This document shows positions 21,697-22,365 of a DNA stretch of 64,000 nucleotides, one piece after another (the stretch's first letter is position 1; each line of letters opens with the position of its first letter). This DNA is from Escherichia coli (GTDB lineage Bacteria; Pseudomonadota; Gammaproteobacteria; Enterobacterales; Enterobacteriaceae). The DNA lies in NCBI RefSeq assembly GCF_024700885.2, contig NZ_CP117016.1; one strand, given 5' to 3'. The position numbers and the translations under genes are program-made. The notes below the pieces were generated by a model. It was not told the DNA's origin. It searched no databases and saw nothing but the letters and a program-made list of their open reading frames with translations.

Positions 21697-22365
21697 ATGC
21701 CCGTCAAGGATTTGACGGGCATTACTGCAAAGGACGCGCAAATGTTATCTGTAGTTAAACCTCTTCAGGAATTTGGTAAGCTCGATAAATGTTTGTCCAG
21801 ATACGGTACGCGCTTCGAGTTTAATAATGAAAAGCAAGTTATATTTTCCAGTGATGTCAATAGCGAAGATACTTTCGTTATTTTAGAGGGCGTTATCTCT
21901 CTGCGTAGAGAAGAAAACGTACTTATCGGTATTACCCAGGCTCCTTATATTATGGGACTGGCTGATGGTTTAATGAAAAACGATATACCATACAAATTAA
22001 TATCAGAAGGAAATTGTACGGGATATCATCTACCAGCCAAACAAACCATTACCCTTATTGAACAAAATCAACTCTGGCGAGATGCTTTTTACTGGTTAGC
22101 CTGGCAAAATAGAATTCTGGAATTACGCGACGTGCAGCTCATTGGGCATAATTCCTACGAACAAATCCGCGCGACGTTATTATCAATGATTGACTGGAAT
22201 GAAGAATTGCGATCACGTATTGGGGTGATGAATTATATCCATCAACGTACACGCATATCGCGTTCTGTCGTCGCAGAAGTTCTCGCTGCTTTGCGTAAAG
22301 GCGGCTATATCGAAATGAATAAAGGCAAACTGGTCGCTATCAACCGTTTGCCTTCAGAGTATTAA
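21697..22365 (+). CDS. yaiV: putative DNA-binding regulator; start may be the internal MLSVVK at 21742
   Basis: 222-aa ORF immediately downstream of yaiT; a hairpin (atgcccgtcaa-ggatt-tgacgggcat) overlaps the first codons of the long form. Confidence 0.65.
   Translation: MPVKDLTGITAKDAQMLSVVKPLQEFGKLDKCLSRYGTRFEFNNEKQVIFSSDVNSEDTFVILEGVISLRREENVLIGITQAPYIMGLADGLMKNDIPYKLISEGNCTGYHLPAKQTITLIEQNQLWRDAFYWLAWQNRILELRDVQLIGHNSYEQIRATLLSMIDWNEELRSRIGVMNYIHQRTRISRSVVAEVLAALRKGGYIEMNKGKLVAINRLPSEY

Follow-up and report, generated by a model that had tools for sequence, protein, structure and literature searches.

The stretch of DNA analysed here (the window, 64,000 nucleotides of one strand) is part of the Escherichia coli chromosome, and its positions 21400-22500 are 100% identical to strain 1190. 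The local gene order is tauD, hemB, ehaB (yaiT), iprA (yaiV), ampH, sbmA (Table 1). The product of ehaB contains a Pfam Autotransporter beta-domain (E = 1e-46); the gene is intact in the window, and in K-12 it is a pseudogene interrupted by IS3. The product of iprA is a winged-helix regulator (Pfam HTH_46, E = 6e-31), named 'hydrogen peroxide resistance inhibitor' in RefSeq. In Salmonella, iprA reportedly belongs to a two-gene operon. The spacer between ehaB and iprA, which is 88 nt long in E. coli, holds two stem-loops, hairpin 1 and hairpin 2, and the second of these is the subject of this analysis.

Table 1. Genes and sequence features at the ehaB-iprA locus (positions of the window)
Feature	Position	Strand	Description	Basis
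hemB		-		
ehaB (yaiT)	18708..21656	+	autotransporter adhesin gene, intact, 982 aa	ORF list, RefSeq annotation of strain 1190
ehaB stop codon	21654-21656	+	TAA	
hairpin 1	21659..21675	+	weak, AT-rich, TTCTTCA-CTC-TGAAGAA, 3 nt past the ehaB stop	RNA folds
predicted sigma-70 promoter of yaiV	21664..21689	+	TTCACT at 21664-21669, TTTAAT at 21684-21689	
predicted CyuR-binding motif match	21670..21690	+	overlaps the spacer and the -10 box of the predicted promoter	
hairpin 2	21695..21724	+	13-bp stem, loop GGAU	RNA fold, covariation, covariance model
upstream ATG	21697..21699	+	start of the obsolete 222-aa yaiV model; in the left arm of hairpin 2	
degenerate U-tract position	21721..21728	+	AUUACUGC, 3 U in 8; C and G at positions 5, 7, 8	
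iprA Shine-Dalgarno sequence	21730..21734	+	AAGGA, 5 nt past hairpin 2, 7 nt 5' of ATG 21742	
iprA (yaiV)	21742..22365	+	207 aa and stop	RefSeq, orthologue alignment
ampH	22366..23523	-	convergent with iprA; stop codons abut, zero gap	

The arms of hairpin 2 (21695-21707, TAATGCCCGTCAA, and 21712-21724, TTGACGGGCATTA) are 100% complementary and lie 4 nt apart. A preliminary description of this DNA had noted an inverted repeat of 11 and 10 nt at 21697-21722; the repeat is real and is the core of the 13-nt arms. It is the sole inverted repeat of at least 10 nt in positions 21000-23000, and its core pattern GCCCGTCA-N3-8-TGACGGGC has one match in the 64-kb window versus 0 expected. The + strand RNA of a 41-nt segment folds at -20.4 kcal/mol, compared with -6.3 +/- 2.2 kcal/mol for shuffled sequences (z = -6.35), and none of 200 shuffles folded as well; the - strand folds at -22.4 kcal/mol. 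With six G-C pairs among its 13 bp, hairpin 2 is a stable GC-rich stem-loop of the kind found in intrinsic terminators and, again as in intrinsic terminators, it is located downstream of a gene on the same strand (ehaB, + strand). It starts 38 nt past the ehaB stop and ends 17 nt 5' of the iprA ATG, that is, between the yaiT stop and the MLSVVK codon, where the preliminary description had placed it. The hairpin is invariant among the Escherichia strains compared.

The further claim that the hairpin spans the start of yaiV does not hold. RefSeq starts iprA at ATG 21742 (MLSVVK, 207 aa) in strain 1190, O157 and K-12 (NP_414909.2), and the orthologues, nearly all of 207-208 aa, align from the same methionine in Escherichia, Citrobacter, Raoultella, Salmonella, Kluyvera, Enterobacter and other genera. 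The block GCAAGGA, which contains the iprA Shine-Dalgarno region, is kept across genera, and inspection of the sequence 5' of ATG 21697 revealed no Shine-Dalgarno-like sequence. Among 39 distinct orthologous upstream sequences, the triplet at this place of the hairpin is ATG in 30 and another triplet in nine; it is in frame in 15 of the 30 and both in frame and open in 12 of the 39. A conserved in-frame start with a ribosome-binding site, as expected for an N-terminal extension of iprA, was not found in these sequences. ATG 21697 is an obsolete and not a genuine start codon, the 222-aa model is wrong, and this ATG and its mirror CAT are merely the outer bases of the hairpin 2 stem. Since the true iprA start is at 21742, hairpin 2 is wholly intergenic; iprA deletions or promoter fusions cut at the old start would bisect it.

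A single scan of species-representative genomes yielded 80 iprA loci. The C-terminus of an autotransporter is encoded directly upstream of iprA in 74 of them and convergent ampH directly downstream in all 80, while 47 of the loci, from about 15 genera, have a hairpin 2 homologue 5' of iprA. When a covariance model derived from the alignment of the hairpin was searched against 81 sources, it matched 48 (the window and the 47 loci); all matches are immediately upstream of iprA, with none elsewhere in 730 kb of related loci. The distance from the end of hairpin 2 to the iprA ATG is 16-22 nt across loci (34 nt in Buttiauxella), and that to the upstream stop is 35-51 nt in most of them. The idea that the hairpin belongs to iprA because of its constant distance from the ATG was dropped, since its distance from the upstream stop varies hardly more.

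The pattern of substitutions was analyzed in 39 distinct sequences from about 15 genera. Standard pairs occupy 96.2% of the hairpin 2 alignment cells versus 87.4% in column shuffles, eight of the 11 pairs have changed on both sides, and none of 500 shuffles reached any of five covariation measures; when the partner is slid by 1-3 columns, pairing falls to 30-48%. Compensated stems include GCCCACCA/TGGTGGGC in Yokenella, TTCCCGCCA/TGGCGGGAA in Phytobacter, GCTCGTCA/TGACGAGC in a Kluyvera relative and GCCTGTCTC/GCGACAGGC in Buttiauxella. The strand under selection can be told from one-sided transitions, each of which produces a G.U pair in one strand and an A.C mismatch in the opposite one. In the stem interior, such changes amount to 15 cells with G.U on the + strand versus two with A.C, or, by our own lineage count of independent wobble events, about 11 G.U versus one A.C (binomial p = 0.006); three further A.C cells are at loop-closing pairs. 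Because of this asymmetry, and because the half-sites change with pairing kept, the + strand RNA is identified as the selected molecule. On this comparative evidence, hairpin 2 is a selected and conserved RNA structure of the + strand, and neither a DNA operator nor an RNA of the - strand.

A perfect 13+13 palindrome beside a regulator gene could in principle be a DNA operator, bound by a dimeric regulator such as IprA itself or a protein of the FNR/CRP type, and FNR binding near yaiV has been published for cells without H-NS and StpA. We give this explanation almost no credence. The half-sites vary freely with pairing kept, while the helix-turn-helix of IprA is nearly invariant across orthologues, and the G.U asymmetry is meaningless for duplex DNA; the alignment holds, in place of the conserved half-site bases and the strand symmetry of an operator, double-sided changes in 8 of 11 pairs and the 15 versus 2 split of cells. 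In addition, the half-sites are oriented GTCA...TGAC, opposite to the CRP/FNR consensus. A dispersed palindromic repeat of the REP/BIME kind was also considered and rejected, the element being single-copy in the 64-kb window and in genomes: the 88-nt spacer is found once in 5387 of 5426 complete E. coli genomes (median, one place per genome).

The sequence that follows the stem differs between genera. Orthologous tails in other genera read AUUUUUUG or UUUUUUGC, and five to seven U in the 8 nt past the stem are found in Kluyvera, Superficieibacter, Phytobacter, Kosakonia, Yokenella, Pseudocitrobacter and others; in Kluyvera sichuanensis the pattern scan calls hairpin 2 a terminator. Judged by stem and tail, hairpin 2 has the shape of an intrinsic terminator in most other genera. 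Weaker tails are those of Escherichia, Citrobacter, Salmonella, Raoultella and Intestinirhabdus. The E. coli tail scores -2.48, among the weakest of the 39; the E. coli stem is not directly followed by a U-rich tract (about 5 or more U in 8), and the scan calls no terminator at hairpin 2 there on either strand. The counterpart of the E. coli tail AUUACUGC with the U residues restored would be AUUUUUGC. The strict maintenance of the stem without a U-tract is an observation that hints at a role other than termination. Folds and the pattern scan found no other terminator-like structure after ehaB in E. coli. Neither yaiV nor iprA is listed in the supplements of SMRT-Cappable-seq, Adams 2021 Term-seq or TERMITe. 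The lack of a mapped RNA 3' end in the Term-seq supplements searched is uninformative, since H-NS binds the locus in K-12 and its expression there is low.

Hairpin 1 varies in its turn. In the Escherichia group its stem is AT-rich and weak; in loci of the Kluyvera and Enterobacter types it is GC-rich (-14 to -25 kcal/mol), and a T-run usually follows. Hairpin 1 stands alone in Enterobacter, Lelliottia and Leclercia, hairpin 2 stands alone in Yokenella, and the two occur together in Kluyvera-type genera. Where hairpin 1 is weak (Escherichia, Citrobacter, Salmonella, Raoultella), hairpin 2 is always retained, and its loss is confined to lineages in which hairpin 1 makes a good terminator; no lineage examined lacks a strong hairpin between the two genes. 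Complementary retention of this sort would be predicted for elements that end or cap the transcripts of the upstream gene. The Kluyvera cryocrescens lineage, which has lost the upstream autotransporter and retained both hairpins, is the only one with an A.C mismatch in the stem interior, and its stems are the weakest (-8.9 and -4.7 kcal/mol), which is consistent with a hairpin that serves the upstream gene. It was also observed that, in several genera, a canonical hairpin 1 terminator makes hairpin 2 look redundant as a terminator.

Termination might in addition concern the opposite strand. The stop codons of ampH and iprA abut, which leaves no space for a separate ampH terminator, and hairpin 2 might be a bidirectional terminator whose - strand activity, relevant in Escherichia, Citrobacter and Salmonella, halts ampH read-through that has crossed iprA in the antisense direction and shields ehaB from antisense transcription. 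The slightly stronger fold of the - strand agrees with this, as do the convergent, adjacent position of ampH in 80 of 80 loci and an upstream A-tract that is conserved in this group and provides a U-rich - strand tail (AUUAUUUAG in E. coli, score -2.98 versus -2.48 on the + strand); the hairpin of Salmonella diarizonae is called a - strand terminator by the scan. However, an upstream A-tract is a normal feature of + strand terminators too, all four one-sided stem-interior changes in the Escherichia group are G.U on the + strand and A.C on the - strand, the - strand tail is not U-rich in other genera (2-3 U in 8), and the hairpin is about 650 nt past the ampH stop. We therefore regard relevant - strand activity as very unlikely.

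Of the two roles suggested in the preliminary description, a terminator of yaiT and an attenuator controlling read-through into yaiV, the second finds little in its favour if regulation is meant. A hairpin and a U-run directly 5' of the iprA Shine-Dalgarno sequence, as seen in many genera, would suit an attenuator or a riboswitch-like switch that couples iprA to a signal, but neither arm has a competing segment of at least 6 nt within +/-200 nt, and forbidding the hairpin costs about 17 kcal/mol and leads to no defined alternative fold. The upstream ATG is not part of a conserved leader ORF, the flanks of the hairpin are AT-only, and no Rfam match exceeded chance: the scan of 21400-22000 (E up to 10) returned just chance echoes of miRNA and sRNA hairpins. 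With no antiterminator pairing, leader peptide or known riboswitch found, a regulated switch is highly improbable. Because no alternative antiterminator pairing exists, hairpin 2 looks constitutive, and any attenuation by it would be constitutive as well.

Several observations concern where iprA transcription starts. The preliminary description had named a yaiV promoter downstream of the hairpin, together with no effect on yaiT, as the result that would refute its proposal; such a promoter is impossible, because just 17 nt, Shine-Dalgarno sequence included, separate hairpin 2 from the ATG. The iprA promoter must be upstream of the hairpin or overlap it. An RNA polymerase-sigma70 SELEX peak, flagged as H-NS bound, was reported in the yaiU>yaiV spacer together with a predicted yaiV promoter, TTCACT-18-TTTAAT (Shimada 2014, PMC3946193). 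The spacer of this predicted promoter is 16 nt in our strain versus 18 nt in K-12. If transcription began about 7 nt past the predicted -10 box, the start would fall at about A21696, at the 5' base of hairpin 2. Published data thus suggest an iprA promoter just 5' of the hairpin, which would place the hairpin in the iprA leader and speaks against the terminator reading. The predicted promoter is weak in a position-weight-matrix scan (5.6-6.3 bits), and the pattern scan found no + strand promoter in the spacer; an attempt to place the iprA start by a simple -35/-10 matrix was abandoned because the scores are too weak.

Other data concern the control of this region. The predicted CyuR motif GAAgAAATacTgGtAATTTAaTC at -75 of yaiV was the best additional match in K-12 (PMC11408624 Table 1), and yaiV was up 4.5 log2 with cysteine (PMC11408624). 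According to the strain alignment, the site is 2 nt shorter in our strain than in K-12 (21 versus 23 nt) and carries an A-to-T change. An ATTTAAT box is kept 6-10 nt upstream of hairpin 2 in Escherichia, Citrobacter, Salmonella and Raoultella. In K-12 Cappable-seq, which covered the locus, no start site was detected in the spacer under the conditions of that study; the + strand starts are at 392929, 393136 and 393395, the next being at 395178 (U00096.2). With an offset between U00096.2 and U00096.3 that we take to be 776 nt, in agreement with the ORF coordinates, the 393395 start corresponds to A21409, within the 3' part of ehaB, which means that transcripts from upstream do approach hairpin 2.

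These observations bear on the main competing explanation, namely that the iprA mRNA is made from its own sigma-70 promoter, controlled by CyuR and silenced by H-NS, and begins at about A21696 with hairpin 2. The hairpin would then protect the 5' end against RppH and RNase E, in the manner of the ompA 5' stem-loop, and would act as a promoter-proximal terminator in the genera with a U-run. The SELEX peak and the predicted promoter in the spacer point in this direction (PMC3946193), as do the overlap of the CyuR motif with the predicted -10 box and the rise of yaiV with cysteine in K-12 even though IS3 breaks yaiT there (PMC11408624). The conserved ATTTAAT box, the strict maintenance of the E. 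coli stem despite the lost U-tract, and the best matrix starts of the Escherichia group, which are within -4 to +3 nt of the 5' base of the hairpin, fit as well. In Enterobacter-type loci, moreover, a strong terminator is followed by an AT-rich spacer, so iprA of this type must have its own promoter. On the other hand, K-12 Cappable-seq shows no start in the spacer, and the promoter scores are weak (4-6.5 of 17 bits) and inconsistent in the two-hairpin genera. With an alternative -10 box, AATAAT (21693-21698), transcription would begin within the left arm and the iprA mRNA could no longer form the hairpin, and in Buttiauxella a TATAAT box is just 1 nt from the hairpin, so that the spacing is not conserved. 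We consider a 5'-leader role possible but doubtful.

Such a role is compatible with termination of ehaB transcripts. The two could be combined in a module of dual use, in which hairpin 2 ends the ehaB transcripts and also opens a cysteine- and CyuR-controlled iprA mRNA that starts at its base. This combination seems unlikely to us; if it were true, the element would be a 5' protective cap in Escherichia and a promoter-proximal terminator in the U-run genera, and one conserved RNA element would set the output of both the adhesin and the regulator.

We lean, with somewhat better than an even chance, towards the explanation that hairpin 2 of E. coli is a weak, constitutive terminator or 3'-end hairpin of ehaB that is leaky toward iprA. 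It would form on + strand transcripts as an intercistronic stem-loop of the intrinsic-terminator type, and its ancestral and main job would be to end ehaB transcripts just before iprA and to protect their 3' ends. In E. coli the GC-rich stem is fully kept and the U-tract appears to have eroded to AUUACUGC; because of this erosion, termination is expected to be partial. Polymerase coming from ehaB, or from the start inside the ehaB 3' end, would read on into iprA. Thus, of the proposals in the preliminary description, termination after yaiT with some read-through into yaiV fits best, because the selected molecule is a + strand RNA, relatives show the terminator shape and the synteny is conserved (74 of 80 loci); against it stand the degenerate U-tract of E. 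coli and the negative terminator scan. That hairpin 2 ends or stabilizes the ehaB RNA, that it is leaky and that read-through adds to iprA expression is what we infer from these data.

In summary, hairpin 2 is an unannotated member of a very common class of elements, and no new mechanism is indicated. As a conserved hairpin it should be respected in the design of ehaB and iprA constructs, deletions and reporters. The two-hairpin spacer could be used across Enterobacteriaceae to test how the transcription of an adhesin gene is linked to, or insulated from, that of an oxidative-stress regulator.

Hairpin 2 can be compared with several known systems. Like the REP/BIME elements, it is an intergenic GC-rich palindrome in E. 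coli but, unlike them, it is found at one place per genome in 5387 genomes, with no further match in the rest of the window or in 730 kb of related loci. In Escherichia, Citrobacter and Salmonella, an A-tract and a U-rich tail flank the hairpin symmetrically, which recalls bidirectional terminators of the SEnd-seq type that lie between convergent genes; in contrast to such terminators, hairpin 2 is between the co-directional ehaB and iprA, the convergent ampH is one gene away, and covariation favours the + strand. The 5' UTR of ompA is the type case of a 5'-terminal stabilizing stem-loop, to which hairpin 2 would be similar if the predicted promoter is real, being then within 0-2 nt of the mRNA 5' end; unlike the ompA case, many hairpin 2 orthologues carry a U-run, which a stabilizer does not need. 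Partial intergenic terminators are known as well, such as the hairpin after papA in the pap fimbrial operon and the T1 terminator of rpsU-dnaG. From these, hairpin 2 differs in its degenerate E. coli U-tract and in the second, canonical terminator that precedes it in many genera. It resembles them as a GC-rich coding-strand stem-loop that shortly follows the stop of a highly expressed structural or surface-protein gene and directly precedes a low-abundance gene, and it shares with intrinsic terminators the U-run, present in most orthologous loci, and the strand-specific covariation.

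The autotransporter gene ehaB (yaiT) is intact in the window and encodes 982 amino acids, whereas the K-12 copy is a pseudogene disrupted by IS3; in several other E. coli genomes the gene is truncated or carries IS1 insertions. Published Cappable-seq data for K-12 place a transcription start in the 3' part of yaiT (U00096.2 position 393395), about 250 nt ahead of the yaiT stop. A transcript from this start would cross the two hairpins of the ehaB-iprA spacer on its way to the regulator gene iprA (yaiV), and if the terminator-type hairpin 2 terminates it, the product could be an RNA of roughly 320 nt from the yaiT 3' end.

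Within the predicted CyuR motif and the spacer of the predicted yaiV promoter, the window differs from K-12 by a 2-nt (CT) deletion and an A-to-T change (see table). These differences leave 16 nt in the predicted promoter spacer instead of the 18 nt of K-12 and alter the distance between the half-sites of the predicted CyuR palindrome. The 88-nt variant of the window is matched at no less than 99% identity by approximately 540 of 5389 E. coli records, and the CT deletion without the A-to-T change is found in other strains.

Positions of features in the window and in iprA loci of other genomes (local coordinates)
Feature	Sequence or locus	Position	Strand
Intact ehaB	window	18708-21656	
Cappable-seq start	window	~21409	+
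Spacer alleles	window, GAAGAAATA--GGTTATTTAATC; K-12, GAAGAAATACTGGTAATTTAATC	21670-21690	
Weak terminator-like site inside iprA	window	22345-22332	-
Adjoining iprA and ampH stops	window	22363-22368	
IS1 in hairpin loop	L087 (E. coli 23AR0998)	748-1537	
Autotransporter gene deleted	L042, L043 (Kluyvera)	3500-4000	
Shortened iprA match	L063 (S. enterica subsp. arizonae)	4001-4522	
Hairpin 2 absent	L034, L035, L040, L044-L046, L049-L053, L059-L062, L065-L071 and others	~3940-4000	

At the other end of iprA, its TAA stop adjoins the ampH stop (TCA on the plus strand, TGA on the minus strand) with no intergenic bases; because the two stops abut, the ampH 3' UTR must be antisense to iprA. The convergent ampH lies immediately 3' of iprA in the loci of all 80 species.

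E. coli 23AR0998 is a natural mutant with an IS1 element in the hairpin loop and with ehaB deleted as far as that insertion, leaving only the right arm of the hairpin (GGATTTGACGGGCAT) ahead of an intact iprA. In Kluyvera cryocrescens and K. genomosp. 1, hemB is the divergent upstream neighbour and both spacer hairpins are still present ahead of iprA, hairpin 2 being in degeneration, with an A.C mismatch and energies of -8.9 and -4.7 kcal/mol. The locus of Salmonella enterica subsp. arizonae appears truncated or rearranged: the iprA match does not begin until residue 34, and there is no autotransporter gene upstream.

Hairpin 2 is absent from the iprA loci of Enterobacter, Lelliottia and Leclercia. 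Its place is taken by a common conserved block, AACCGACAGATACGGATGACTTGAGGTCTGCATG, which forms a 5-bp stem (CAGAT/GTCTG) around the Shine-Dalgarno sequence, directly at the iprA start codon.
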